Shown here piece by piece: positions 3,927-64,000 of a stretch of 64,000 nucleotides of DNA. This DNA is from a virus. Its lineage: Duplodnaviria; Caudoviricetes. Made by a program: the position numbers and the translations under genes. Below the pieces are notes generated by a model. The model did not search any database, was not told the origin of the DNA, and saw nothing but the letters and a program-made list of their open reading frames with translations. The stretch's first letter is position 1. Each line of letters opens with the position of its first letter. The stretch spans positions 75,875 to 139,874 of IMG/VR virus record IMGVR_UViG_3300026549_000043. One strand, 5' to 3'.

Positions 3927-4787
3927 ATGGCTAATAATAATAAATCTTTAACCACCCGTAAATTAGAATATGATAAAATTGTTGAATTTAGAAAATTACA
4001 TAGTATCGACTATCTAAATAATATAGCTAAGTTAATGGGTTATACAACAATATCAGAGGTATTTGATGATGGTTGGCCTATAACAGAACTAAAAAAATAT
4101 AGTGATGAAGCCAGTAAATTAACTTGAGGGGCTGATATTCCAAATAGATATTGAAAATTTATGTGTAGAGAAGTTTGTAATGAATATTTAACTGAAAAAT
4201 ATGGGTCACCTAAAGATTACTTCAATACAGAAGTTTTTATTAAACGGAGAGTAACAAATATAGGTAACACTATGGAAACTAGGTATGGGTATAGAAATCC
4301 TGGCCAATCACCTGAACACCGTGAACTTATGAAAAAGGGAAGTAATTGTAAAAATCCCTTTTCATCTGACTCTTTTAAATATAATTCATATATTCGTGGT
4401 AAAACGGTATTGCCAGAAGATAAAATAGCATATGATGAATATAGAAAAAAGGTTGATAAGCTCACAGATATAAATAAACAAAATTTACCTTTTACAGGTA
4501 TATGCTATTATACAGAATTACCTATTTTTAAATATGATGGTAATAAAACAATTAATAGAAATGATTGGAATATGGCTACAATAGATCATAAAATTTCTGT
4601 TATAGCTGGTTTTTTAAGAGGTATTTCTCCTGAAATTATTTCTAGTGTAGATAATTTATGTTGATGCTCAAAGTATTTTAATAGTTTCAAGGGTTCCAAA
4701 TGTGAAGATGAAATTAGGCTGTCAGGTCTGATCGAACGATTTAAGGAGGTTATTAAAAAATACTATGCAAGTAGTGAAGGTGACTAA
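3927..4787 (+). CDS. Free-standing HNH homing endonuclease (286 aa with TGA=Trp)
   Basis: Reading TGA at 4125, 4152 and 4662 as Trp joins two track ORFs and completes IDHKIS...DNLC(W)CSKYFNSFKG. It sits between the two intein halves. Confidence 0.85.
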
Positions 4788-18471: not shown

Positions 18472-19224
18472 ATGAAGGTTAATAAAATTACCAAAAATAT
18501 TTCTGAATCAACATCTAATTCAAACGGAATTTATTCTTTAAATACTGGGTGGGTAAAGAAACCAGTAAAGGATGATATTCCAGAAGTAGATTTAGAACCT
18601 GATTTAACTGAGTGAAGAGACAGGGCCAAGAGCTGTAATTCTTTAGAAGATATAAATAGTTTTATAGATGATATTTATATCTTAAGACAGAATTCCATTA
18701 TGAATGATGGAGAATATGGAAAAGGGAACTTGATTTTTAAAGAAATTAGAAATGAAGGCATATTACAAGAATTGAAAGATAAAAAGGTTAATTTAGAAAA
18801 TAACGAAATGAGTATAAAAGAAGGATTAAAAGATTTTTCTAATGATGTAATTGAAAAACTACTTACTAAATATTCAGATTGTTCAAAGGATGAATTAGAT
18901 GATGTCTGGGATGAGATCGTAAGAGATTATAACGATACTGATTTAGCTGATGAAGTATGTGAATTATTAGATATTAGACTTGATGATTTATATAGTGAAT
19001 CATTAAAACCTATAAAAGAAGAACCATTAGATTATAATGAAAGTGATATTTTTAAACAAAAAAATGAAGCCTGTATCAAAGAATATAGGCAGTGAGCTGG
19101 ATTATCTGATGATGAATTAATCACTGAGGATAAAATAAATGAATGAGCTTTAAACCGTGTAAGCTGTAATAATAATTATGATTATAATGATTTAAAAGAA
19201 GTATTATGCGGTAATAATAAATAA
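18472..19224 (+). CDS. C-terminal half of the phage nucleotidyltransferase plus extra domains (250 aa, TGA=Trp)
   Basis: RBS aggagaagg; TGAs at 18613, 19093, 19144; SNGIYSL..GWVKEP...LRQNSIMNDGEYGKGNLIFKEIRN. Confidence 0.7.
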
Positions 19225-25307: not shown

Positions 25308-26027
25308 ATGGACATTGATATTATTAATCAAGCCTGGCCTTATGTAAAAAATTACATGGACTGATATTTAAATCCTGAACTAAATACACCTGTTTCAGAA
25401 CAGGCTGAAGAAGAAGGAAAATCATTCAATGAAGTAGTAAGATATAATTTATTTGAGGATCCAGATACCTGGACAGATCCTGAAGTGGGAATAATTTATA
25501 CTGGATGGTATGAAGACCCAGATTTATATGAATACCTATCTTATTATGATGAAGATGATCCTGGTTATAGTGAATTAATTGATAGCTTAGTATCTAGGGC
25601 TAAAGACTATGTTTCTAATATTCTAGATGGTAAAGATACGAATGAAGAAATTATAACAGAAGCTAAATCAAAAAACCCAGAAGAATTAGAAATAGAGACC
25701 GAAACAATTAAATCAGATCTTGAAGACTTTGGCCCTGAAGGATTTTATGCTGTATCATTTGATAGATTCTCAAGAGAATTCCCAGAATTTACAAATACAG
25801 TAGTAAAAACTTTCTTATTAGATATGGGCATCTTAAATGAAGATGAATTAAATAACATTGATAATTTAGGTGATGAAGATGGTAATTATTGGAGTACTGG
25901 CCGATTGATTTTCCCTTCAGACTGAGAAGCTTTAATCGATGGAGCTGAAAGATTATATACTTTTAGGAAAGATAAAGGAATTCAGTGGGAAAAAATTTAT
26001 AAATCTCATTATAAACCACAAAATTAA
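25308..26027 (+). CDS. Acidic hypothetical protein (239 aa, TGA=Trp)
   Basis: RBS ggagg and ATG 25308; TGAs at 25362 and 25923; the frame ends at TAA just before a terminator. Confidence 0.65.
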
Positions 26028-28361: not shown

Positions 28362-28850
28362 ATGGTAACTGTAAAAAATAATAACATAGTTATGACCAGA
28401 GGAGACTCTTTAAATTTAAAGGTTGCTATTATAAAAAGAAAGTCTGTATCAGGTGCAGGGCCATCTGATAGGCCTACTCCAATTCCTAGCGGAAAAGAAA
28501 TAATAGAGCCAGGTTCTACTGATTTAGAAAATTGTGAAGTTAAATTTGCTATGAGTAGATTTTTTCCTGGCCAGGTAAAATATAAACTTTTATTAACAAA
28601 GGATATTCCAACTTCTACTTTAGGTTTAATTTTAGACCCAAAGGATACTAAGGATATTCCTCTAGGAATATATAATTATGATGTAAAGTTAAAAACTCCT
28701 AAGCCAATTTCTGAACAGGAAGACTCAGAAGATTTATGGTATATTGACACCTTTATTTCTGGCACAATCCAATTAATAGGTGAGTGCGAAGGAGAAGAAG
28801 GTGTAGTTAACGACTATATTCATGAGGATGGCGTAAATGGCAATATCTAA
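28362..28850 (+). CDS. BppU-like structural protein
   Basis: MTRGDSL...LDPKDTKDIPLGIYNYDV; paralogue of the upstream gene. Confidence 0.6.
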   Translation: MVTVKNNNIVMTRGDSLNLKVAIIKRKSVSGAGPSDRPTPIPSGKEIIEPGSTDLENCEVKFAMSRFFPGQVKYKLLLTKDIPTSTLGLILDPKDTKDIPLGIYNYDVKLKTPKPISEQEDSEDLWYIDTFISGTIQLIGECEGEEGVVNDYIHEDGVNGNI

Positions 28851-31146
28851 TAGAATAAATAAATCAGAATTATCTGGATTTTTAATAAGGGATGAATTAA
28901 TAACCACGGGTGACTTAGTTAGTGATAACTTAGGTACCGGTGGGCTTTTGACTGTTGGAGATCGTGGAATTGATGGATTTTCTCCCATTATAAAAGTTAC
29001 CCAGATAGAATCTAGTGAAGGTAAACTTGGTTATATTTTAAATATTACTGACATTAATAATCCTTATGAAGGTAATAATTACGAAATTTGAAATGGTACC
29101 GGGATATCTGATGTATCATTAGATGACGAATATCATTTAGTTATTAATTTTGATGATGGTACTCAATGGATTTCTCCTTTAAGTATTAGAGGCCCACAAG
29201 GCGAGCAGGGAATTCAAGGTGAACAAGGTATTCAAGGTGAAAAGGGTGACAAAGGAGATCCATTCACCTATGAGGATTTTACTCCTGAACAACTAGAAGG
29301 TCTAAGAGGACCGCAGGGTATCCAAGGTGAAACTGGACCTGTAGGCCCGCAAGGACCTCAGGGTATCCAAGGAGAAACTGGTCCAGTAGGACCTCAGGGC
29401 CCTAAGGGAGATACTGGTGATACAGGCCCTAAGGGAGATACTGGTGAAACTGGTCCACAAGGTCCTAAGGGAGACAAAGGTGATCCGTTCACTTATTCAG
29501 ATTTTACACCTGAGCAATTAGAAGGCTTGAGAGGACCACAAGGTCCTAAGGGAGATAAAGGCGATACCGGAGAAACAGGACCGCAAGGACCGCAAGGTGA
29601 ACCTTTTACTTATGATGATTTTACACCTGAGCAATTAGAATCTCTTAGAGGTCCTCAAGGTATACAAGGTGAAAAAGGTGACCCATTTACTTATTCAGAC
29701 TTTACACCAGAACAGTTAGAATCACTTAGAGGTCCTCAAGGTCCACAAGGTATACAAGGTCCACAAGGTATACAGGGTATTCAAGGTGAAACTGGCCCTA
29801 CAGGTAATGGAATTCAAGATATAAATTATTATTATGCAGTATCTGAAACTCAGGTAGCTCCACCAGCAGCTGAGATTACCAGTACAACAATACCAACTCT
29901 AAGTAATACTGATAAATATCTTTGGGCTAAGGAAGTTATTTCTTATACTAATTCAACAACTAAAACTTTAGTTCTGTTATTAGCTATTTACGGAGACCAA
30001 GGTATTCAGGGTATTCAAGGACCACAGGGCATTCAAGGTATTCAGGGCGAAACCGGTCCACAAGGACCTAAGGGCGACCCATTTACTTATGAAGATTTTA
30101 CTCCACAGCAGTTAGAAGATTTAACTGGTCCTCAAGGGCCTAAGGGCGAAACCGGTCCACAGGGACCTAAAGGTGATGCCTTTACTTACGAAGACTTTAC
30201 TCCACAGCAACTTGAAGATTTAACTGGTCCGCAAGGCCCAGAAGGACCACAAGGACCTGAAGGCCCACAGGGTCCTCAAGGCGAAAAGGGTGAAAGAGGC
30301 GAACCTGGAAGGTCTGGAAGCTATGAAGCTGGTAATTATATTGATATTACTGGAGAAGTTATTTCAGCTATTCCAATGTATGAAGCTGGAGATAATATTA
30401 CTATTACTGCTGACTCAACTTCATCTGAAATCCCTAATATTTATAGAGAAATATCTTATATCCAAGGTGATGGCACTCAATATATAATTACAGGGGTACA
30501 ATATGATCCTAATAGTAATTATGAATTATCAACTACAATTAGAACCTCAGCTTCTCAGACAACTGCTACATCTTCTGGATGAAGTAATGGTGGAGCAGTC
30601 TGCTTTGATTTAAAAAATGGTAATTTATTTTATTCTAATGGAGACGGCAGTACTACTAATATTGCTGCTGCTACAAAAACAAAGGTTACCATTTCAATAG
30701 ATAACACAAATAATACTTCTGATTATAACTATATACCTGAAGGGGTTAGTGTTTATTCTGATTCTAGAAGTAATTCAGGATTATTACCTACTACTAACTA
30801 TCCATTATTAGCTTACACCGATTCCAATGGAATAGCTGGTCAAATGAGTGGTTCAATTTATAGATTCACAGCTAAAAAGGACGGAGTATTAATTGGAGAC
30901 TATGTACCAGTACAAAGGATCTCTGATAATGAAGTAGGTTTATACGATATAATAAATAATGTATTTTATATTAATTCAGGTACCGGAAAGTTTACTGCCA
31001 GAGAGTTAGTAGCTCCAACATATACTATTTCTTCAACAGATACAACTTATTCAGCTGGAAATGGTATTACTATTTCAAATCAGAATGTCATATCTATTAA
31101 AGAAGTATTATTATTAGATTGCGGTACAAGTGTTATAAATATGTAA
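28837..31146 (+). CDS. Collagen-like (Gly-X-Y) fibre protein, 769 aa with TGA=Trp
   Basis: TGAs at 29089 and 30580 join three track ORFs; GPQG runs are interrupted by repeated [15 protein letters not shown] units; C-terminal DYVPVQR...GLYD domain. Confidence 0.85.
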
Positions 31147-48450: not shown

Positions 48451-49266
48451 ATGAGAGGTGTTCTTATGTTAGATCATGGTCTTGGATGTATTTGTAGTCC
48501 TACTGATGTTAGAGATTATAAATTAGCTAGGTCATCAGTTTCTTCAGTAGAGTTGCCTGAATCTTTTGAATGTGAAAAAAGAAGTAGAGTTAAAGATCAG
48601 AGGTCAGTTGGATCTTGTGTAGCTCATGCTGCTAGCTCAATATTAGAATATCATTATTCTCCTAATAATAGATTATCTACTAATTTTATTTATGGAATAC
48701 ATTATAAATTATTCGGGTCAGAAGGTCCTGGAGTTAGTCTAAGGGAAGCTTGTAAGATTATTTCTAAATATGGTGACCCTGAATTAAAATATTGTCCAGG
48801 TAATACTGAAGTAGAAAAAGTTTATGATTTAGCAGAAGAGTGTTTTGATAATCCTGAGGCTATGGAAAACGCCTCTAAATATAAAATAGATAATTATGTA
48901 AAATTATTAAGTGATAAAGATATTAAATATTCTATTTTTAATTACGGACCGGTATTAGCTGCTATAGAATGATTTGATTATAATGGCTGTGATTTTAAAG
49001 GTAAGCTAATAAAAAATGGTATATCTGAAGGTTACCATGCTATTATTATATATGGGTGAAATAAGGATGGATGGCTATGTCAAAATTCATGGGGTATAAC
49101 TTGAGGAAAGTCCGGATATTTTATTCTCCCTTATGATTATAAAATAAGAGAAAGTTATTCATTTGTGCCATCTTCATCTTTTGAAGAATTAGAAGTCCCA
49201 AAAAGAAATTCTTTCTTAGATGTATTTTATAAGATTATTAATTGGATTTTAAATTTTTGGGGGTAA
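48451..49266 (+). CDS. Papain-like C1 cysteine peptidase (TGA=Trp)
   Basis: DQRSVGSCVAHA. The catalytic HAIIIYG(W) and QNSWGIT(W)GKSGY appear only if TGA at 48970, 49057 and 49102 is read through. Confidence 0.88.
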
Positions 49267-49268
49267 AA

Positions 49269-49913
49269 GTGAAGATTTGTATTGGAATTATTAGTTATTT
49301 ACCAGATAACCAAGACATCAAATTAAAACGTTTATCAAAGTTAAATAATTTAATTTCAAGCTGTGATAGGCTTTTTAAATTACCAATAATTATCATTTCT
49401 CAAAATTGAAATGAAGTTAAATTAAATAAATTAAATGATTCAAAGTTAATTATATATAACTATAAAAACCCATTAGGTATTACTAAGGCTAGAAAAGAAT
49501 TAAGGAAAAAATTTTTGTCTTCTGAATATGACTATCTAATAATGTTAGACGACGATAGTGAATTAACTGGTACCCCTGAAGGTGCTCAGGGATATTTAGA
49601 TCAAATTTATGAACACCCAGATATGTATGGAGTTTTTAAATCAATGTTATTAAAATTATTTGCTATATCAAGGACGGTTTATCAATTAGTTGATTTTCCT
49701 GATTTAGAAGCCGGAAAAGGTGAATTTTTTGAAGATATGTATTTAATAATGTCTCTGAATAAAAAATATCCAGATAAAAAATTTATTTTTAAAAGATATG
49801 GAATAAATGAAAGTTCGAATTCTTCAAGTGACCCATTATCTACTTGGTATCATAAACAATTCATAAAAAGAAATATGGGTGATAGAACTCGTGAACTAGT
49901 GAGGAATCTTTAA
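49269..49913 (+). CDS. GT-A fold glycosyltransferase-like protein (TGA=Trp)
   Basis: GTG start; LGITKARKELR...YDYLIMLDDD, FFED; TGA at 49407. Confidence 0.75.
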
Positions 49914-49914
49914 G

Positions 49915-50574
49915 ATGTTAAGAAAGTGTATTGGAATAATAAGTTATTTCCCTGATGATTTAAAAGAGATACGGGAATCAGATTTAAATAATTTATTAAG
50001 AGATTGTTCTACTTATTTCCCATGAGTTGATGTTATTATTGTAGCTCAAAATTATAAAGGGTACATCCCTAAGTCTAATAAAAATAGAATAATTTTATAT
50101 TCTTATAAAGATAAACTGGGAATCACTGGTGCTAGAAAAAAGTTAAGAGAAATATTTATTAATTCTGAGTATGATTATCTAATAATGATGGATGACGACA
50201 ATCAAATACTTGGAAATACTAATAATAATCTATTAGAAGTTTTAGAGAATAACCCAGATAAATTTATTTGTTTCAATTGAGATTTTGGGCAATTATATTT
50301 ATTTACCATTTCAAAATCACTTTTTAAAAAAGTTGAATACCCAGAGTTAACTGCAGAGAATGGAGAAATCTTCGAAGACTTGTATTTATCTCAGATATGT
50401 AAAGCTTTATGCCCTAATTATATCGATTCTAAAGAAATAAATATTACTAGTAAAACTAGTGGTGATAAAAGTACTTGGTGGAATAATTCTTATAACTTAA
50501 AAAGAATGGTAGCTAATACTTATAAATTAATTGATAGTGATTTAAAAAATAAATATGGAACAATTAAAAAATAG
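49915..50574 (+). CDS. GT-A fold glycosyltransferase-like protein, tandem paralogue (TGA=Trp)
   Basis: CIGIISY.P, LGITGARKKLR...YDYLIMMDDD, IFED; TGAs at 50023 and 50278. Confidence 0.75.
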
Positions 50575-50592
50575 AAGTCAGCTTCTATTTTT
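50567..50592 (+). terminator. Intrinsic terminator
   Basis: aaaaatagaag-tcag-cttctattttt. Confidence 0.7.
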
Positions 50593-50596
50593 ATTA

Positions 50597-50611
50597 GCTA
50601 AATTAAATATA
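50597..50611 (+). promoter_or_regulatory. GCTAAATT promoter motif
   Basis: GCTAAATTAAATATA, RBS aggagg, ATG at 50632. Confidence 0.7.
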
Positions 50612-50631
50612 TATAGGTTAGGAGGAAAGAT

Positions 50632-51825
50632 ATGGCTGTTGATAAAATAGATACAAAGGGATTAATCCCAACGACTAATTCATCTACTAATCAAGTAAAT
50701 AGTCAAATATTTACTACTAACCAAAATGCTAGTATGAATGTGGCTGAATCTGGAGGAACCTTTTCTTTTCTTTATGATCCAAGTATTTCTGAGCCTATTT
50801 TAGATATAAAAAATGATGATGATAATCTTTATGTAACTAAAATATCTAACTATAATAATTTTTATTATAAACGTGGTTATCATTATAAAAATAACGCTTT
50901 CCCAAGTGGTGGCTATAGTACAGCTATGAATATGTATTCTGATAACTGAGATAGAAGTTGGTATTCTAAACAAGGTTATAATAATGCCTCTAAATTTGAT
51001 AATTATACTGTCTTAGCTAATTGTGTAGGGTGGGCCAACGCTAGAGTATTAGAAGTTTGAAATAGAGCTTTAAAGAATGGATATATAAAATATGATGCTA
51101 GTAAGCAGGGTTATTTTTTAAAGAATGGTTCTCCAATTACTGGTAGAGTTTATGATAATGTAACAGGTAATGGCCCTACACCACCAGCTTGTAATGCCGT
51201 CAATTTTTATAAATATTGGCCAACGGCTACTGGATGGTCTAAGGGGTCTGAGCCAAAGGTAGGAGCTTTAATTGTTTGAGGAGCTCATTATAGTACTTCT
51301 GGTAACCCTGGACATGTAGCTTTTGTAGAAAAGGTAGAAGATAATGGCGATATAATTATTTCAGAATCTTCTGCTGCTAATAGTGGTATACATTGGCTGG
51401 TTCAGTTATATAAATTGAAAAAAAGTAATGGCTATACTAGATACTACGATCATGTCTTAGTAGGATTCTGTTATTCACCTGTATGTGAATTAGCTAGTAG
51501 TAATGGATATAGAACTGTTACGGAATTCGGTGGTATTATCGAACCTACACCTGAACAAATAGAAGCTTACAATAAGGCTGTTGAAAATATTTCAGGATTA
51601 ACCGTCGAAGTTGAATTTGATCCCAACGATAAAGTTGAAATTGTATGGTTAGGTAGTAAAGATCCTAATGGAGATTTTAGTATAAAAAGCAGAGTTAATA
51701 ATATGGGTGTAATTGGTATAGTCGGTAACAAAATAAATGGAGCTAAATTCCCATATCCGGTTAGACCAATTAACAGTAATTATATAATAGGCTATTACCG
51801 ATGAGAAGATTTAAAACGTGTATAA
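50632..51825 (+). CDS. Second CHAP-domain hydrolase (397 aa, four TGA=Trp)
   Basis: ANCVGW...PKVGALIV(W)G...GHVAFVE...ISES; TGAs at 50947, 51058, 51277, 51802. Confidence 0.82.
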
Positions 51826-51842
51826 TATAATGAGGTTAATAG

Positions 51843-53858
51843 ATGGCAATTAATAAAGATATAATTTTATTAGATACAGATAAAACCAAGTTATACCCAC
51901 TGGCACATAAGGATAGCGGCAATAATGTTATTGTAGATACTTATGTAAAAAAGGCCGGAGATATTATGACTGGTCCTTTAATTATAGAAGGCACTGCGGC
52001 CAGTAATCCACTGATTGTTAGAGGGATTAGCGGCTCTGATGGTAATGGAAATCTAGGTGATTTATTTCTTAATCGAAATGGAGGAGTTACTTACTTTGGT
52101 ACCTCTGGTGGGGGATATATTTCAGAAGATGGTAAATCATATTCAGGAAATGCTGCTACAGCTACTAAGGCTACTCAAGATGGTGATGGCAATACCATTT
52201 CTACGACGTATGTCAAAGAAGCTGGAGATACCATGACCGGCAGCTTATCATTTAGTAACGCCAATATTGGGGTACAAAGAGTAGGCCGTAGTATGTCTTG
52301 GCATAAAGGTAGAGATGGTGCTTTAGTAAAGACCACATCTATAGTTGGATATAGCCCTACAACTTCAACAAAAACTAATAATGGCTCCTGGGAAATTGGG
52401 GCCTATGATAATTCAAGTTATACTGATGATTTAGTATTTTCATATGTAAAAGATACTGATTACACTAATAATACCAATGCTCATACTGAAATAAAATTCT
52501 TGGAAAACGGTAGTATTGTGGCTAACCTCCAGGGAAATGTTACTGGTAATGTAACTGGAAATGTTACAGGTTCTTCATCTTTAAATGTTTTGAAGGCTGG
52601 GGATACCATGTCCGGTAATCTGTTTTTTGCTAATACTAATAACACAACTACTACTGGTTCTACTCCTTTGGGAATTTATGGCTCAGTAGGAGATAATGAT
52701 GGCTGAAGAATCGTTGGTTTAGGTAGTTCTAATGCTGGTTCATTAGAAATAGCTACTGATGATGACGGTAACGAACCTATTTATGTTAGACAATATAGCG
52801 GAGGCGGAAGTTCAGCTGGTTTTGTAACTATAGCTAGAACTTTAACTTTATTAGATGGTAATGGCAATACTACTATACCTGGAAGTTTACACCTAACTAG
52901 TAATAACGATGCTGCTGGTGGTTCTTTGGGTAGTCCACCACTAATTATAGGTACATCTACCGCACAACATATAGAAATAGATAATAATGAAATATTATCT
53001 AAATCAAATGGTACTACGCCTTCCACTTTGTATTTACAGGATAGTACCGGTGGTGTAGTAGTAGCAGGTTCAGGTGGGTTAAATGTTAATAATGGTAATT
53101 TAGCAGTTTCAGGAACTATTACTTCTACAGGTGCAATTTCAGCTACTGCAGGCAGTATCTGGGCAGGTACTGACGGAAACACGGCGGCAGAGAGAGACCT
53201 TGGTGTACAATCTGGTGCAGGGAGAATTTATTTATATTCGGCTGCAGCCACAAATGGTGCCAGGGGTATTTGGTTAACAGCACATGGTACTGATACTAGT
53301 GGTAAGAATGTTTTATCAGTTGATACCAATAATAATACTACTTTTTATGGTACTTTAAGTGGTACAGCTACTAATGCTACAAATATTAAGATAGCTAGTG
53401 GTACAAATGATAAAAGATATTTGGTTGGGGTTACAGATTACGCTTCTACAAATCAGGCGCCATATATTAGTGCTGAGAATAAATGTTATATGCAAAGTGG
53501 ATATTTGTATTCGAATGGCATAATAGTAAATAGTGTGACAACGGCCACTGGTGTTGTAACTAGATCTAGTGGGTGTACTTTAAAGTCTAGTACCATTAAT
53601 ATAGCTGGTAAAGTAGCACAGCTAAATGTTGTTTTAACAGGACCTAGTGGTTCACAAACTGATGGAACAATAATATTTGTTGGAACCATATCAAATACCG
53701 CATATCGGCCAAAAGCCTCAGCTAGAGGATGCGATACATATGGTACTTCATCTTTGATTGGATGGATCACTACTGGCGGAGAAGTAAATATTCGTGTTAT
53801 GGATGCCGGGACATATAACACTACGCTTGAAATGGCGTTTACCTATATAATTCCATAA
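51843..53858 (+). CDS. Tail fibre protein (671 aa, TGA=Trp)
   Basis: YVKKAGDxMTG repeats and GNVTGNVTG; TGA at 52704 within DG(W)RIVG...EIATDDDGNEPIYVRQY. Confidence 0.8.
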
Positions 53859-53884
53859 AATTAATTTAAGGAAGTGAGTAGACA

Positions 53885-55867
53885 ATGTCTAACATAGAGT
53901 TAAAAAATTTAACAGAGCAAGAAAGAAAAGCTGTATTAGAAATATTAAAAGAATATTCAGATACAGGTAATTCAACTAGTTTGTCTTCTTTGATGTATGA
54001 AGACTGGGATGAAATACCTGTAGATATTACTACTTTTCTTCATAATAGAAAATATTTAGGAAATGCCTTATATGACCAGGAGGGTAAATTTACTTTATTT
54101 CCCTATTGGGAAGAAAAATTAAAAGACATTTTTCCTACTAATACTACTACAAAATATAACACTATTATATTTACTGGGGCAATTGGTTTAGGTAAATCTA
54201 CCATAGCAGTAATTTGTTTGTTATATTTACTATATAGATTACTTTGTTTAAAGGATCCATATTTATATTATGGAATGCAACCTATTGATAAAATAACCAT
54301 TTCTTTAATGAATATCACTATTGAAAACGCTAAGGGTGTTGCCTTAGATAAGATGAATCAAATGATTTTATCTAGTGAGTGATTTATGAATCATGGCGAA
54401 ATGGCGGGTATTTCAAATTTAGAATATAGGCCTGATAAACATATTGAATTAATAGTTGGTTCTAGTAATAACCAGGTTATTGGTAGAGCACTATATGCAA
54501 ACTTCGTAGATGAAGTAAACTGGGGATTAACCAACGATGTAGAGAAATTAAAGAAAAAGCAATTACAATTAATTTCTCAGATTGATGCCCGTATGAAATC
54601 AAGATTTATGAGAGGTACTTATTTACCTACTCTTAATATTATCGCTTCATCAAAGAACAGCGACCAATCTTTTTTGGAATCATTTATAGAAACAAAAAAG
54701 AAAAATGAATCTACAAATACTTTAATAGTAGATGAACCTCAATGGGTAGTAGATTCAAGAAAAGATAGCAAGGAACATTTCTTCGTAGCTATTGGAAATA
54801 AGTTTTTAGCTAACGAATTGATTCCGTTAAATTCTCCAAAAGAATTAATAAGTGAATACCGGGCTAAGGGGTATAATATATTAGAAGTACCTATTGGTTA
54901 TTATGAAAACTTTAAAGAAAATATAGATGGTGCCTTAACAGATATTGCCGGTATTGCTACTGCCTCTAGTTTAAAATATATCTCAGGTATTAGATGGAAT
55001 GAAATAAAAACTGATTCCTATAAAAATCCATTTACCAAAGAAATTATTGAGGTAGGAAATGCTAAAGATGATGTTTCTCAATATCAAGACTATTTTGATT
55101 TAACTAAAGTACCTTCTACTTTAAAATCAAAACCATTATATATTCACCTTGACATGTCTATGTCAGGAGATAAAACTGGTATTGCCGGTGTATATGTGGT
55201 AGGAAAAAGTCCAAAGGTAGAAGGAGAATCTAGTTCAAAAGAAATGTTCTATCAAGTAGCTTTTAATGTATCAGTAAAGGCTCCTAAGGGATATGAAATA
55301 TCTTTTGACAAAAATAGAACTTTTATTAGGTGGTTAAAGCAACAAGGTTTCAGAGTTAGAGGAATAAGCTCAGACTCATTCCAAAGTGCCCAGATCCAAC
55401 AGCAGTTAAATGCTGACGGGTTTAATTCTATTATCGTTTCAGTTGATAGATTAGATCCTACAAGTAAACAATGTTTACCTTACGCCTATTTAAAATCAAC
55501 GATTTATGATAGAAGATTAATAGTTTATAAAGATTGTGATTTCTTGACTGAAGAAGTTCTTGGATTAGAAAGAGAATCTGATGGCCATATTAATCACCCT
55601 GAAGGTGGTACTAAGGGTAGTAAGGACGCCATCGATGCGGTGTGTGGTGCTTTATGGAATGCTTCTCAGCATGCTGATGAATATAGCTATGAATATGGCG
55701 AAAACGCAAATATGGTAGCAGATTTTAATGATTATTTAATGAGCCCAACAGAATCATTTCAAAATAGTTTATTAAATTTAAATGATTCTAAAAATAGACC
55801 AGTAATAGATTTCGGAATGGGTGATGCCGTTGATTATCTCCCATCTGATGGTATAATATTATTTTAA
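53885..55867 (+). CDS. terL: Terminase large subunit (660 aa, TGA=Trp)
   Basis: Walker A GAIGLGKS, then SSE(W)F at TGA 54380, Walker B FVDEVN, nuclease HLDMS..GD.TG and SKDAIDAVCG. Confidence 0.9.
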
Positions 55868-55881
55868 TGGAGGTTATATAA

Positions 55882-57738
55882 ATGCCTAATAATAATGATG
55901 AAACTTTCAATAATATAGATTATAAAAATAAAGCTGTAGCGGTACCACTACCAGATAGAATTAATGATATTGATACTAAAAATACTTTATATAAAAATAT
56001 TATTGATGCAGCTGACAATAATACTTTAGATCTTAGTGATATTAACTCATTTACTTCAATATCTCAATCTAGAGATGAAGTCTATAACTTAATTGATGAG
56101 ATGGCCCAAGACCCAATAATTTCAGTAGCTTTAGATATTTATACCTCTGATGCTTGTGAACCTAATGAACAGGGAAAAATCGTATGGGCAGAAGCTGAAG
56201 ATGAAAGAGTACTTGGAGAAATTGAACACTTATTAGATTATATGAGTGTTGATAAAAATATCTTCGGGTGGATGTATTCATTAATTAAATATGGTGATTT
56301 ATATTTAAGACTTTATAGAGACTCAGAATATAACTCAGATATATTCAAAAAATCAGAAGTATTAAATGAAGATGTAATCTTAAAAGCCTATAAGCAAAAT
56401 GATCACTTCGCTGAATATATGGAAATCGTTAAAAATCCAGCCGAGGTATTTGATTTACAAAGATTCGGTAAAACTGTTGGTTATATTAGATCTCATATAC
56501 AGACTAGATCTCCTAACTCAGATGATATAACTACTCAATATACTAATTTATTTAAGTATAACTTCAATAGAGGAGACGTAGATTTATATCCGGCCACAGA
56601 TTTAGTTCATGCTTGTTTAGAAGATAATTCTAGCCGTACATCCGAAGAAGTAACTATTTTTAATTCTGACTCAAGTGAAGGAGACGGTATTAGCTATTCA
56701 GTTAAGCGTGGCCAGTCGATCTTGTATAATATTTTTAAGATCTGAAGAGAATTATCTTTATTAGAAAATTCAGTATTATTAAATAGAATTACCAAGTCAT
56801 CAATTATTAGAACTGTTTCTGTTGAAGTTGGTGATATGGAAAAGAATGATGTCCAGAAGTTATTACAGAGAATTAAACAGATGATTGAACAGAAATCAGC
56901 TATTAATGTTAATAACTCATATAATGATTATACCAACCCAGGTCCGATAGAAAATGTTATTTATATTCCAACCCATGATGGTAAGGGTGCTATTACTACA
57001 GGGCAAATTGGTGGCGATGTTAATGTCGGAGATCTAGTAGATTTAGATTATTTCAAAAATAAATTATATGGAGCATTAGGAATTCCAAAACAATACTTAG
57101 GTGATACAGATGATGCTACAGGATTTAATGGCGGTACAGCATTATCTCTTACTTCTAGTAGATATGCTAAGACTGTTAAGAGAGTCCAGAATGCAATGAT
57201 CCAGGCTTTAACTGATGCAATTAATTTAATGTTATTTGATAAAGGGTTAACAAATTATATTAATGAATTTAGATTAAAAATGCAGGCACCTACAACTCAG
57301 GAAGAAAAAGACCGTAAAGAAAATTTATCAAGTTCTATTTCAAATATCAGAGAAATTATGAGCTTGGTAGATATGATTGAAGACCCAATTACAAAATTAA
57401 ATATTTTAAAATCATTATTATCAAATACTATCTCAGATATTAATGTAATTACAGCAATCCAGGATGAAATTGAAAGATTGACTTCTGAAGCTGAGGGCGA
57501 AGAACCTGGTGAAGATGAGATGTCTGAGGAATCTGGTGGCAGTGATGAATTTGACTTCGACTTTGGTGGTGAAGAATCTTTACCTACACCAGAAGAATCA
57601 GGTAGTGCTGAAATGGAAATTCCAGAAGAACCAGCTGAAAGCTTTGAAACAGGAGATGGTGAATTATTAACTGAACAATCAGATAATAATTTACCTAACT
57701 GGTCAGAGTTAGGTATGTCATATACTGACACTTTCTAA
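55882..57738 (+). CDS. T4 gp20-like portal protein (618 aa, TGA=Trp)
   Basis: LIKYGD.Y; GQSILYNIFKI(W)RELSLLENSVLLNRITKS across TGA 56743; DLDYFKNKLYGALGIPK. Confidence 0.88.
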
Positions 57739-58327: not shown

Positions 58328-60139
58328 ATGATTAATAAATTAAATGAAAATACCATTTTAAAGTTTAAAAACCTTTCTCCAGAAGAAAAAGAAAAGAAAG
58401 GGATTTTAGGTAGATTATATGGTAAAGTAGCAGATTTTACCAATGGTACTAGAAATGGTAGAAAATACAGTGAACAACTATGGGAAAACCTTTTAAATTC
58501 TGATCTTATTAAAGAAAGATTTGCTAACGGTGGAATCTTTGGTCAATTATGTCACCCAGAATATGAAGAGGTTGACATGGAAAAGATTGCTTGTGTTATG
58601 CCTGAACCTCCAGTAAAAGATAAAGATGGTCAATTGGTAGCTTACGTAGATATCCTAGATACTCCATGCGGAAGAATTGCTTACCAATTAGCTAAGTATG
58701 GATATAAGTTAGGTATTTCAAGCAGAGGTACTGGTGATTTGATTACTGGTCCAGATGGCGAAGAAGAAGTAGATCCAGATACTTATCAATTAAATGCTTT
58801 TGATTTGGTTGAAATCCCTGCTGTTGAAAGTGCTAGACTTTCATTTGTTGAATCTTTAGATAAAAAGAGATATAATAAAACTTTAAGACAAAGTTTAACT
58901 GAATCATTAAATAAAGCTACTCCAGAAGATCGTAAGTTGATGGAAGAATCTTTAAATGATTTAGGTATTGATTTAAATGAAAGTGCTTCACAGGAATTAA
59001 ATAAATATTATCAAGAGTGGAAAGATAAAAATCCAGGCGTTGATTTTGAATCATTATTATCAGAATATGAGAAGGAATCAGGAAAATTATTAAGTGATAT
59101 TATGTACTCTGAAAATGATTACAATAATTTTGTTACCTGGGCTGAAGAAGAAAAAGGTACTCATATAAAAGGTTTAGATGAATCTTTTGATCCTAGAGGA
59201 TATTCTAAAGTAATTAAAGCCATTGGAGATGGAATTGAAAATGATGATAATTTAGATGATTTAAGAGATTATCTACAAAACATTATTGGATATTGCCGTT
59301 CAATTGCTGATGATTATGGTATATTAGTTGAGAATGTGAACAACGACAAAGTTGTTTCAGATACAGACAAGGATGAAGAAGTTGTTGATAACAAATCTGA
59401 TATGGAATTAGTTGCTGAATTCCAGGAATCCTTATTAAAGATTAAAAAATTAGAAGAAGATAATTTGTCACTTCAGGAACAATTATCAGTTGGTAATGCC
59501 AAGGAAATTAAATTAAATGAAGATCTATCTAGATATAAGGAATCTACGATTAGGCTAAGTGATGCAGTAAAGGAACTTAAACCTGTAAAGGAAGAAGTTT
59601 CTAAATTAGAAGAATCACTAAAAGAAAAAGACAAAATTATTTCTACTAATAAATCTAGAATCAATTCCTTAGTTGAATCTAGAAAGAAAGCTCAGTCAGA
59701 GATTGATTCTTTGAAGGAATCTAATGAGGAACTGAATAAGAAAAATTCTTCATTAAATGAGGAGCTTGATAATTCTATTAAAAAATATGAAGTCATGTCT
59801 AAGCAACTAGATAGCTCTAAAAATTTAATAGAAAAATATAAACGTAGTTATAAATCATTAAAAGAAAACTACCTTGAGATCAAGGCTACAAGCTATGGTC
59901 TCAGAAAAGAAGAAGTATTAAAGAAGTTAGATGAATCATATCGAATTAAAGATATTGATGCTGTATGTGAAGAGTTATCACAATTTAAAACCAATATTAG
60001 TAAATTACCATTTAGATTAACTGAGAATACTAAGTTTTCAGTTAAGCCATCTGAAAATGAATATATAAAGGGTAATAGAAATAACTTCGATGATGATTAT
60101 GTAACAAGTTCTTTATTACATCTTGCCGATATAAAATAA
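58328..60139 (+). CDS. T4 gp21-like prohead protease fused to a coiled-coil scaffold
   Basis: NGRKYS, GQLCHP, LDTPCG, LGISSRGTG, FDLV..P; long heptad-rich C-terminus with many LxES sites. Confidence 0.88.
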   Translation: MINKLNENTILKFKNLSPEEKEKKGILGRLYGKVADFTNGTRNGRKYSEQLWENLLNSDLIKERFANGGIFGQLCHPEYEEVDMEKIACVMPEPPVKDKDGQLVAYVDILDTPCGRIAYQLAKYGYKLGISSRGTGDLITGPDGEEEVDPDTYQLNAFDLVEIPAVESARLSFVESLDKKRYNKTLRQSLTESLNKATPEDRKLMEESLNDLGIDLNESASQELNKYYQEWKDKNPGVDFESLLSEYEKESGKLLSDIMYSENDYNNFVTWAEEEKGTHIKGLDESFDPRGYSKVIKAIGDGIENDDNLDDLRDYLQNIIGYCRSIADDYGILVENVNNDKVVSDTDKDEEVVDNKSDMELVAEFQESLLKIKKLEEDNLSLQEQLSVGNAKEIKLNEDLSRYKESTIRLSDAVKELKPVKEEVSKLEESLKEKDKIISTNKSRINSLVESRKKAQSEIDSLKESNEELNKKNSSLNEELDNSIKKYEVMSKQLDSSKNLIEKYKRSYKSLKENYLEIKATSYGLRKEEVLKKLDESYRIKDIDAVCEELSQFKTNISKLPFRLTENTKFSVKPSENEYIKGNRNNFDDDYVTSSLLHLADIK

Positions 60140-60161: not shown

Positions 60162-60379
60162 ATGGCAACAAATTTATTAGAAAGCTATAAGGGCAGATTA
60201 GCCATTTCTGAAAAGTATTATGCTCAGCAGAATGCTGGTGCTAGAATGTCTAATCAGAAGAAGTTATTAACTGCCGCTTGCTTAAACAATACTGCACAGT
60301 TTATTAATGAAGCATTTGCTAACAGTGTAGGTACTCAGAGAGCTGACTTAGGTAAGTTCAAGCAGTTCTGTATGGATAT
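60162..60379 (+). CDS. Major capsid protein (gp23-like), exon 1
   Basis: MATNLLES...FCMD; the exon end GGATAT pairs with intron GTATCC through a terminal U-G wobble. Confidence 0.85.
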
Positions 60380-60449
60380 AAATTAGGTTGTATCCTTAGT
60401 AAATATAAAAATTAGTTTACCCTTTTATTGAATATGTTTATAATATAAT

Positions 60450-60538
60450 TATAGTTGGGGACAGCAGGTTGCAAACTGTTTCTAGATACCCTATTATTTA
60501 GATTACCCAATTTATATATAAATCTATAGGGAGATAAT
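60450..60538 (+). ncRNA. Structured leader RNA (3-way junction plus RBS pseudoknot), copy 1
   Basis: Four helices, with compensatory changes relative to 61840-61930. Confidence 0.7.
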
Positions 60539-61441
60539 ATGAAAAAACATAGACTTAGTTTAAAACAGGCCTTAGATAGAGTAAATAAAGAAGAATTTGA
60601 AATATCTTATAGAAAAATAGAAAATACTTTATCAGATATTAGTAAATTATTTAATATCTCAGTTAGTATGGTTAAACGATTGGCTGAATATTGGGATATA
60701 TCCTGGAGCAAAGAAGAAATTTCTGCCCGGAAAAAATATAATTCAAGTAAATATGACCATCAAAAGTCTAATTTATTAAGATTAGAAACTAACCTTAATA
60801 GATATGGTACATATAATCCACGGACAATTTTACATCCTGATAGTTATTCTTACGATAAAAATAAAATAGATTTACAACAAAATAAATATAAAGAAACTTG
60901 TAAATCTAAATATGGTACACCATACTATTCACAAACAGATAAATTTAAAAATGGAATGGTTAATTCTTTTAAGAAAACCATGCTCTTAAAGTATGGTGTT
61001 GATCATTTCATGAAAGTACCAGAACTTAAAAATAGAATAATACAGGCTGGTCGAGGAAGCTATTATTATAAAGATTTATATTTTAAATCTTCTTGGGAAT
61101 TAGCTTTTTATATTTTCCATTTAGATAATGGAGATAACATCATTCACAGTAAATTTATTAAACCTTTTAAATATATTTATAATTCTGTTGAGCATAGTTA
61201 TTTCCCGGATTTTATATTAAATGGTGATTATATTGAAATAAAAGGTTGGCAATTCTTAGATAATAATGGAAATTTAATAAATCCTTATAATCATAATTTA
61301 GATGGATTGTCTAGGGCTAAACAAGAATGTATGATAGCTAATAATGTTAAATTACTAACTCAAGATGATATTCAATATTCTATTGATTATATTATTGATC
61401 AATATGGACCTGATTTTTTAAAAAATTGTAAACTAAAATAA
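60539..61441 (+). CDS. Intron-encoded PD-(D/E)XK-type homing endonuclease
   Basis: T...KYG repeats; FKSSWE...YFPDF......IEIKG. Confidence 0.8.
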   Translation: MKKHRLSLKQALDRVNKEEFEISYRKIENTLSDISKLFNISVSMVKRLAEYWDISWSKEEISARKKYNSSKYDHQKSNLLRLETNLNRYGTYNPRTILHPDSYSYDKNKIDLQQNKYKETCKSKYGTPYYSQTDKFKNGMVNSFKKTMLLKYGVDHFMKVPELKNRIIQAGRGSYYYKDLYFKSSWELAFYIFHLDNGDNIIHSKFIKPFKYIYNSVEHSYFPDFILNGDYIEIKGWQFLDNNGNLINPYNHNLDGLSRAKQECMIANNVKLLTQDDIQYSIDYIIDQYGPDFLKNCKLK

Positions 61442-61728
61442 AAATTACTAATAAAAACCCCATTAATTTCTGGAAAACCTTATAGTTGTGGTTAAGGCTA
61501 TAAGACAATCAGAAGCCAAGCTATATAAATTATATAGAAGGTTCAACGACTATCGAAAATATATCCTTTGAGAAATCCATTGGAGAATAAATGAGTAGAG
61601 TACATCTTAGTAAGATGGAAAGATGGGGATGCCAGGTAGAGATAAAGTTTACTTGGTATATAATATAGTCTGAACTATATAGTGATATATAGAGAATAAT
61701 TGGAAACGAATTATTCGTAACATATTTG

Positions 61729-61753
61729 TACTACATTAACCATGCCAAACCTT
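61729..61753 (+). CDS. Major capsid protein, 25-nt exon 2 ((I)TTLTMPNL)
   Basis: Lies between the terminal G of intron 1 and the CCTT/GAGG P1 of intron 2; supplies the gp23 PNL motif. Confidence 0.82.
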
Positions 61754-61839
61754 TAAACAGTAGAGGCATTAATTAGTGATAATTAATGGAAAGCATTTAA
61801 TTTCTAATAAAGTTTACATAGCCAAATATATAATATAAA

Positions 61840-61930
61840 ATAAATAAGTGGGACAGTAGGTTCGAAACTATTTCTAATTACCGCATTAATTAGATTACCA
61901 CTATTTATACATTACTATGCGGGGTAAATT
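61840..61930 (+). ncRNA. Structured leader RNA, copy 2
   Basis: Same fold as 60450-60538; loop CCGCAT pairs with ATGCGG at the RBS. Confidence 0.7.
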
Positions 61931-62668
61931 ATGATTATATATAAAATAACAAATTTAGTAAACAATAAAATTTATATTGGTCAAACTAGAAATTCATTAA
62001 ATTCTAGATGAAGCTGTCACATTAGAGATAGCAAATACGCTTCAACCGGTATTGATTCAGCTATCAGAAAATATGGAAAAGAAAATTTCAAGGTTGAGGT
62101 ATTAGACGATACCGCTTCTTCACTGGAAGAATTAAATAATTTAGAAATATATTATATAAAGTTATATAATTCTACTAATAATAAAATAGGTTATAACCAA
62201 ACTACTGGTGGCGGTGGAATCTCAGGCTATACTCATAACGAAGAATCCAAGTATAGATGTGGATCTTCATTTAGAGGTAAAAAAAGAATTAAAACAGTTG
62301 ATCAAGTAGATAAGTGACGTATAACATTTTATAAGAATAATAATCATATAAAGAGTGAAGAATTCTGTCGTAAACAAAGTGAAAATTTAAAATTAGCTTA
62401 TGCATCGGGTAGAAGAAAACCAAATGGAAAAGGAGTCGGCGGTAGAAAGCCAATGTCTGAAGAAGAAAAAATAAGAAATAGCGTTACTCAAAGTGGAGCC
62501 AAAAAGATGTTTCATAAAAAATTGGAAATTATTACACTTGTTTATAAAGATGAAATATCTGACAGATTATCCGAGGAATTTGAATTTTGTACAAAATCAA
62601 ATAACTTTATATGAAAAGATTATAAATATGTAAAACGTAAAGAATTTAAAATGCTAAAACCCTTTTAA
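61931..62668 (+). CDS. Intron-encoded GIY-YIG homing endonuclease (245 aa, TGA=Trp; absent from the ORF track)
   Basis: MIIYKITNLVNNKIYIGQT...R(W)..H...AIRKYG.ENF...E..YI...GYN...GG; TGAs at 62009, 62315, 62612. Confidence 0.9.
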
Positions 62669-62933
62669 TTTCTGGAAACTCTTATATATCATAATGTCAG
62701 TATATAAGACAATCAGAAGCCAAGCTATATAAATTATATAGAAGGTTCAACGACTATCGAAATGGTAACCTAAAAGAAAAATTTAGGTGAGAACAAAGTA
62801 GAGTAGAACTAAAGTTAGTTCGAAATGGAGGGAGTCATAGCGAGGTTGGCAACAAGCTATGATTGTGATATAGTCTAATCTATATGGTGACATATAGAAA
62901 ACAAATGGAAACGATTTGTTTGTAATATAAATG

Positions 62934-64000
62934 GTTGTTAATGACATTTTCATGGTTAAGCCAATGACTTCATTCAGTGGCTACCTCACATACATGGAAT
63001 TCGCCCTTGGTACAGAAAAGGGCGGTGCCGGTGGAATTGCTGAGGCAGATCCATTCAAGAATGCTATGGCTGCTTACCGTGGTGAAGAATACCAGGCTAA
63101 TAATATTGTTAATTCAGCTATTACTGGTCTTGGTGTAATGGATGAGAACCGTGCTCGTTACACAGGTGCTGTTGTCGTTGAATCAGTTGCTGCTGGTGAA
63201 GTTAAGCCTTCATGGACACCTGTTCTTGGTGACGTTGAATTCTTAGCTGAAGGTGGAACAGATTGGGCAAAGTTAGAAGCTGATTCCGAAGGTAAGTTAA
63301 CTGTTGATGCTGCTGGTAAGATTCGTTACCACTATGATAATGAATACATTCCACAGGATAAGCTTCCAACATTAGTTGGCCGCATGAAGGGTATTAACTT
63401 AACAGCTAAGGCTCGTAGAATTGCTGTTTACTATTCACAGTTTGCTGCATTCCAGAGCAAGCAGGACTATGGCATGGACTTCGAAGCTACAATCGCTCAG
63501 CAGGCTCAGGCTGAATTACAGTACGAAATCGATGGTGAAGCTGTATTATTAGTCAAGGAAGCTGCCAAGGGTGTTACTGGTTTAACATGGGTTGATGAAG
63601 AGTTAGATACAATCTCTTACTCAATGAAGGCTGAAGGCTTTGCTAGAGTACTCGAACAGGCTAAGGCTGAGGTTTATAAGAAGACTGGCCGTTGGATGCC
63701 TAACTGGATGTTAGTTGGACCAGAGGTTATGCCTATCTTATCATTCGTCAAGGGATTCCAGCCAGCTGCTAATGCTGTAGTAAATGGACCATACGTTGCT
63801 GGTACTGTTGCTGGCTTAAAGGTTATCGTTTCTCCAATGCTCGGCAAGGAATGCTTACTTGGTGTCTTAGGTGCTGATGGCAAGACAGCTACAGGCGTTT
63901 ACGCTCCATATCTTCCTATAGTACCAACTCAGTTATTAGGTTTTGCTGATGGTACTATGTCTCAGGGTTTCTCTACAATGTATGACATGAGAATTTTAAA
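62934..64000 (+). CDS. Major capsid protein (gp23-like), exon 3; runs off the window end
   Basis: VVNDIFMVKPMTSFSG, LTAKARRI, ELQYEIDGE, GVYAPYLP; strongly biased high-expression codons. Confidence 0.9.

Follow-up and report, generated by a model that had tools for sequence, protein, structure and literature searches.

Group I introns in late genes, major capsid genes among them, have been reported from several phages. The locus considered here lies in a 64,000-nucleotide (nt) stretch of DNA (the window; positions 75,875 to 139,874 of IMG/VR record IMGVR_UViG_3300026549_000043), part of a record of about 140 kb from an uncultured T4-related cattle-gut phage, and consists of a gp23-type major capsid gene split by two introns. 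In phage Twort, orf142 holds three group I introns within one late gene and is subject to exon skipping (Landthaler and Shub 1999, PNAS 96:7005, as summarised in PMC3073962). The present locus is similar in that one late gene carries several similar phage-type group I introns with an intervening exon that could be skipped. Here, however, the host gene encodes a gp23-type capsid protein, two different endonuclease genes are present, and the intervening exon measures 25 nt and its skipping destroys the frame. Likewise, the capsid genes of crAss-like phages of the Delta and Zeta groups have up to four insertions (up to five pieces) together with recoding (Yutin et al. 2021; PMC7886860), and crAss-like phages have in-frame TGA codons inside intron open reading frames (ORFs) in the PolB gene (PMC7886860). 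Like the present phage, these are gut phages that have not been cultured, that recode TGA or TAG and whose capsid gene is cut by group I introns, but they belong to a different order, their capsid protein is of a different family and their introns were recognised from protein domains; neither a 25-nt exon nor paired paralogous ribozymes are described in that report.

In Bacillus phage SP-15 (GenBank KT624200, SP15_032 to SP15_034) a gp23-like capsid gene is annotated as a two-piece join around a T7 endonuclease I-type ORF. That ORF and the endonuclease of the first intron here have a PDF...ExK motif in common (BLASTP E 0.011). The SP-15 capsid protein is about 28% identical to the one described here, and SP-15 differs in having a single intron at a C-terminal site, in being a cultured Bacillus phage and in using the standard code. 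In mycobacteriophage LittleE an endonuclease-bearing capsid intron that follows a U and ends in G was defined against intron-less relatives and confirmed by reverse-transcription PCR, with lactococcal phage Tuc2009 cited as another case (Pope et al. 2013; PMC3706429). Endonuclease-bearing introns in a major capsid gene, with U before and G last and with limits set by intron-less relatives, are also seen here; LittleE differs in having one intron, in an HK97-type capsid gene, and in being a siphovirus. The td gene of T4 offers a further comparison: its group I intron, also of the phage type, has the GIY-YIG endonuclease I-TevI in one of its peripheral loops, and the catalytic domain of that enzyme is detectably similar. 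The corresponding ORF at this locus is in P2.1 rather than P6, and its host gene is structural.

An earlier note on this DNA had described two introns with closely adjacent homing sites in the most abundant virion protein as unusual. That rarity was overstated, because capsid genes with one or several introns have already been published (PMC7886860, PMC3706429) or annotated (KT624200); capsid-gene introns are known and this is no new kind of element. Less common are the 25-nt exon, the two endonuclease families on paralogous ribozymes, the common leader of their cassettes and the coexistence of an ORF-less twin allele. The locus provides a base-resolved case in which a TGA-recoded T4-related gut phage would need one ribozyme reaction after another, at sites separated by 25 nt, for its most highly expressed late gene, with intron-less, ORF-less and ORF-bearing alleles all present in public metagenomes.

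The interrupted capsid gene and its two introns

The capsid ORF meets a stop at 60384–60386 when left unspliced. Joining 60379 to 61729 and 61753 to 62934 produces an open capsid frame without a stop, which reads FCMDITTLTMPNLVVNDIFMVKPM. Exons contain 36–44% guanine plus cytosine and introns 26–28%. Exon 3 alone matches the Gp23 family (PF07068) from profile position 21; in the intron-less relative L001 the match reaches 91.4 bits, begins at profile position 3 and spans both splice sites. Leaving out exon 2 shifts the frame, and the skipped frame remains open for about 66 codons beyond the junction before a stop. The coordinates of all features are listed in the table.

Features of the split capsid gene, its introns and related elements
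Feature	Position	Strand	Remarks
Capsid exon 1	60162..60379	+	218 nt; ORF start; tblastn against relatives covers residues 1–74
Group I intron 1	60380..61728	+	1349 nt; preceded by U, last base G; placed by Rfam and intron-less relatives
Intron 1 internal guide GTATCC	60390..60395	+	pairs with exon GGATAT; U.G wobble at splice site
Cassette-1 leader	60452..60538	+	three-way junction RNA, then ribosome-binding site
Endonuclease 1	60539..61441	+	300 amino acids; DUF7487; in P2 loop; stop codon overlaps P2 3′ strand
Intron 1 ribozyme core	61445..61728	+	P3 to P9.x and terminal G; Rfam alignment, family covariation
60-nt block, copy 1	61499..61558	+	identical to copy 2
Capsid exon 2	61729..61753	+	25 nt, ends in U; completes an Ile codon (third base), then TTLTMPNL
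Group I intron 2	61754..62933	+	1180 nt; preceded by U, last base G; Rfam 57.1 bits
Intron 2 internal guide GAGG	61763..61766	+	pairs with exon CCTT (61750–61753); U.G wobble at cut; from sequence alone
Cassette-2 leader	61844..61930	+	architecture as in cassette-1 leader
Endonuclease 2	61931..62668	+	245 amino acids; GIY-YIG, I-TevI-like; in P2.1 loop; final ~15 codons overlap ribozyme
Intron 2 ribozyme core	62620..62933	+	Rfam alignment, covariation
60-nt block, copy 2	62703..62762	+	identical to copy 1
Capsid exon 3	62934..64000	+	runs off record end; Pfam Gp23 (PF07068) 78.4 bits
tRNA(UCA)	G000:C1:47366-47463		outside window; 98 nt; ARAGORN at lowered stringency, called selenocysteine (SeC)

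The junctions are backed by alleles in relatives. A scan of IMG/VR with exon 3 returned 23 related loci. L001 is without introns; its protein is 88% identical, and a 180-nt probe spanning the two junctions aligns to it ungapped at 93.9% (blastn). The spliced protein is contiguous in 14 relatives by tblastn. A contiguous capsid at both sites was also found in L004, L005–L007, L010–L018 and L022 (tblastn or blastn), the 180-nt probe is contiguous in L004, L005–L007, L021 and L023 as well (blastn), and exon 2 adjoins its neighbours directly in L001, L004, L005, L021 and L023. At each of the two junctions themselves, L001 departs from the intron-bearing alleles by synonymous changes (ATC for ATT, TTA for CTT). 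Two further loci carry both introns: L003, found in another sample, matches the window in intron lengths (1349 and 1180 nt) and has the same introns, and L002, from a third sample, has ORF-less introns of 364 and 394 nt at the same two sites. Exon 2 is 100% identical in both. Because these two loci come from other samples, the twin-intron arrangement is no assembly artefact. In a pattern scan of IMG/VR for single-intron alleles, L002 and L003 were the only loci with intron 2. A match in L030 to the intron-1 junction pattern was dismissed as chance, as it was accompanied by neither a capsid gene nor an intron core.

Group I identity was examined with the Rfam RF00028 covariance model (curated cut-off 50 bits). 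Intron 2 matches over 62620–62897 at the score given in the table, above the cut-off. Intron 1 reaches 38.8 bits (E 1e-7) in the window and 49.3 bits in a whole-record search; the ORF-less L002 versions score 52.6 bits (intron 1) and 57.3 bits (intron 2). On L024, which is the start of the same record, and on L001, cmscan in E-value mode gave no group I match; the same L024 DNA gave 78.7 bits at record positions 1251–1554 in a whole-record profile search. Filter behaviour may hide introns in such AT-rich sequence. L008 also has no Rfam match, yet all core motifs of the intron family are present there.

The helices point the same way. The last six bases of exon 1, GGATAT (60374–60379), form the 5′ strand of intron 1 P1, for which a compensatory change is seen in L008, where exon AGATAT accompanies guide GTATCT. 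In intron 2, AACAGT (61756–61761), just 5′ of the guide, could form P10 with the first bases of exon 3, judged from the letters alone. The 3′ ribozyme parts of 14 family introns were aligned, all of them from capsid genes, either in the window or on one of five related contigs, and RNAalifold found P3, P4, P5, P6, two hairpins between P7 and P3′, P8 and P9, with compensatory changes in 46 of the 63 pairs. The two hairpins (alignment columns 179–199 and 218–271) covary and correspond to IA-type P7.1 and P7.2, by which both introns are assigned to subgroup IA, the phage type.

Taken together, the capsid gene is very probably split by two group I introns that splice at the junctions given above. 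The earlier note had proposed these introns and junctions, the 25-nt exon between them and the frameshift on exon skipping, and all of these hold. Inteins and a fractured gene were considered and rejected, as the inserts contain stop codons whichever frame the exons impose, and the 25-nt exon is too short for a separate protein. Gene callers will miss or truncate this capsid gene.

Several points weigh against the two-intron reading. Intron 1 in the window falls just below the Rfam cut-off, and its P10 is weak, amounting to 3 base pairs by eye. P7 is invariant in the 14 family introns and pseudoknotted, and because it is invariant, covariation is silent on it. The nuclease fold of endonuclease 1 (below) rests on middling scores (Z 5–7). 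Lastly, exon 3 of the window may be a strain chimera, through an assembly join, or a natural recombinant, because L003 joins the same introns to a different exon-3 allele, the one at the record start. The low score and the weak P10 of intron 1 would be expected if one intron, likeliest intron 1, were a decaying ribozyme in need of help from a protein or a neighbour, or if the whole allele were a dead capsid gene. Such decay is very improbable, however: every core helix is intact and covarying, L003 has an identical copy of the 304-nt 3′ ribozyme part of intron 1, that of L002 agrees at 93% and exceeds the cut-off, the exons are without stops or frameshifts, and in the examined parts of the record the only other capsid gene is the wrap-around allele with which the record begins.

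That wrap-around allele bears on exon 3. The first 80 bases of the record repeat window positions 62854–62933 exactly and then run into the other exon-3 allele, 84% identical in DNA. The exon 3 of the window is closest to intron-less L001 (91% DNA identity), and L003 pairs the introns of the window with the record-start allele (97%). A real twin-intron gene whose intron 2/exon 3 junction is an assembly chimera of two co-occurring strains is thus a serious possibility, if short of probable. Homing and co-conversion shuffle flanking exons, though, so a true recombinant is equally possible, and the presence of twin introns holds regardless, since L002 and L003 carry them independently.

Relation between the two ribozymes

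The identical core reported in the earlier note proved to be exactly 60 nt long. It spans the 3′ strands of P5 and P4, the whole of P6, J6/7, the P7 5′ strand and J7/3. Over their 3′ parts the introns agree at 206 of 311 positions (66%), with compensatory differences in P3, P5, P8, P9, P9.x and the P7.1/P7.2 hairpins; outside the block 146 of 251 aligned core positions are identical (~58%). The P6 hairpin varies freely in 12 related introns, yet is the same in introns 1 and 2. In intron 1 of L002 the P6 stem is the same and the loop is 18 nt longer.

Because the hypervariable P6 is identical while the remaining cores are so diverged, local gene conversion is favoured over recent duplication. 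Of the two origins that had been put forward for the shared core, conversion therefore gains from the P6 identity, and a recent duplication of the whole intron is unlikely given the divergence outside the block. Purifying selection on the core of two anciently diverged introns could also preserve such a block without conversion. The string CAACGACTATCGAAA, which covers J6/7, P7 and J7/3 and forms part of the block, is invariant in all 14 family introns, and GACAATC and CCAAGC are nearly so, as selection would predict. But the block also includes the whole P6 hairpin and the P4 3′ strand, which differ and covary among other introns, and neither the longer P6 loop of L002 on an unchanged stem nor the low identity of the flanking core fits well with constraint. 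An origin by selection alone is accordingly somewhat doubtful, and local conversion of the central block appears the more likely of the two.

Endonuclease cassettes and TGA recoding

When compared with the L002 alleles, intron 1 has ~997 nt extra (roughly 60422–61424) at the tip of a long P2 hairpin, and intron 2 has ~786 nt extra (roughly 61838–62623) at the P2.1 tip. Both endonuclease ORFs lie 5′ of P3, and they are unrelated to one another (DUF7487 and GIY-YIG), in line with what had been claimed of their kinship and their place 5′ of the catalytic core. Each is preceded by a leader of ~90 nt, and the two leaders are 82% identical across a 50-nt core (60458–60507 and 61850–61899). There are just two copies in the window, and both fold into the same three-way junction. 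Folding-energy z-scores of -1.2 and -1.7 are weak alone, so that weight is given solely to the architecture common to both. Beside the ribosome-binding site, inspection by eye shows CCCUAU/AUAGGG in leader 1 where leader 2 has CCGCAU/AUGCGG, which suggests masking of that site. Translation of I-TevI is delayed by a structured leader over its ribosome-binding site, which the cassette leaders here recall. Because the leader is common to unrelated endonuclease ORFs and absent from the ORF-less L002 introns, it suggests a portable expression or regulation module that travels with the endonuclease gene and not with the ribozyme.

Endonuclease 1 matches Pfam PF24308 at 38.4 bits and phrog_15427, annotated 'endonuclease'. 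It has a motif of the PD-(D/E)xK type, SWE...PDF...EIKG, in which E187, P223-D224-F225, E233, K235 and G236 are invariant in 34 homologues. There is a weak match to T7 endonuclease I at PDF...ExKG, and Pfam Phage_endo_I scores 14.1 bits, below its cut-off. An AlphaFold model has a predicted local distance difference test (pLDDT) score of 81.6, with 81–98 for residues 111–300, and its C-terminal domain aligns almost only with PD-(D/E)xK nucleases (TnsA, Z 6.4; I-Bth0305I, Z 5.1; also Bax1, Vsr and Hjc). Foldseek returned no match to the model at E <= 0.001. A PD-(D/E)xK nuclease fold is likely, though the scores are middling. The locus also puts the uncharacterised family DUF7487 where an intron homing endonuclease would be expected.

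Endonuclease 2 is, by family match, an I-TevI-like GIY-YIG homing endonuclease with predicted cleavage activity (Pfam PF01541, 33.1 bits against a cut-off of 22.6; phrog_314, 5e-31). Residues 3–89 align with the I-TevI catalytic domain (1mk0; E 1e-4); IYKI, IYIG and R26 align and GYN87-89 matches, and the catalytic Glu was not picked out. The ORF contains three in-frame TGA codons and so stays open only under code 4, with TGA as Trp; of the three, codon 27 aligns to a conserved Trp of I-TevI in 1mk0.

The use of TGA as Trp seems to extend to part of the genes of this phage. Code 4 fuses many plus-strand ORFs of the window into longer proteins. ORFs that appear or merge only under this code are found at 3927–4787, 18472–19224, 25308–26027, 28837–31146, 48451–51825 and 51843–57738, and these include large late-region genes. 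Additionally, the putative tRNA(UCA) lies directly upstream of a tRNA-Trp(CCA) in the same record. Together, the tRNA and the code 4 evidence fit the TGA-recoded gut phages of Borges et al., who described an endonuclease rich in TGA codons within a group I intron of Agate phages and suggested that these stops postpone production of the enzyme (bioRxiv 10.1101/2021.08.26.457843). When set against T4 td, the TGA codons here could act as a second brake on translation, as those authors proposed for the Agate phages.

Proposed splicing and homing, and the surroundings of the locus

In the proposed mechanism, each ribozyme in the late pre-mRNA would pair its guide with the upstream exon end (GGAUAU/GUAUCC in intron 1, CCUU/GAGG in intron 2), cut after the U and rejoin the exons after its own terminal G, and the removal of both introns would leave a single open capsid frame. 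The cassette in the P2 or P2.1 loop would consist of the common structured leader, probably hiding the ribosome-binding site, followed by the ORF. Both endonucleases presumably cut intron-less capsid alleles in mixed infections, by which the introns would be copied in (homing). The TGA codons of the GIY-YIG gene should make its translation wait for an active phage tRNA(UCA).

Enzymes of the I-TevI-type GIY-YIG class cut ~23–25 nt upstream of the insertion site of their intron. The endonuclease of intron 2 would, by this analogy, cut where intron 1 sits, and the 25-nt spacing would then be no accident, a speculative and rather unlikely reading. Such a break could have been the point of capture of intron 1; alternatively, intron 1 could shield the allele from the cut or hitch-hike on it. 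A ladder of sites among relatives, with a twin separated by a ~24-nt micro-exon in L008 and an intron 6 nt from site 1 in L019, hints in this direction. If true, the adjacent introns would co-operate or compete as a pair and would thereby influence how co-infecting phages exchange capsid genes.

Within this clade the N-terminal part of the capsid gene (residues ~48–82) is, by comparison of the related contigs, an intron hot-spot, with relatives that have four to six introns. The other twin, L008 (3559–5036), consists of a GIY-YIG intron whose 5′ splice site is placed only approximately, then the micro-exon and, at site 1, an intron without an ORF. The L019 intron lies upstream of site 1. L021 (1186–6384) has about four capsid introns and L023 (2465–7305) about five to six, at other sites. 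Jug phages carry a mean of 18.5 introns per genome.

Motifs of T4-type late promoters gave no clear placement before genes in the window: TATAAATA and TATAAAATA occur just modestly more often than in shuffles of this AT-rich sequence, and no promoter is claimed. At the record start, outside the window (L024 1–1800), the capsid ORF stops at 1256, the group I match noted above (1251–1554) follows, and 1605–1778 then repeats the final 57 codons of the capsid gene in diverged form (~80% DNA identity); this layout recurs in L001 and L003. Just 5′ of the capsid gene, 58328–60139 encodes a 603-amino-acid protein with an N-terminal prohead protease (S77 / phrog_207) and a long coiled-coil tail, which looks like a protease–scaffold fusion.

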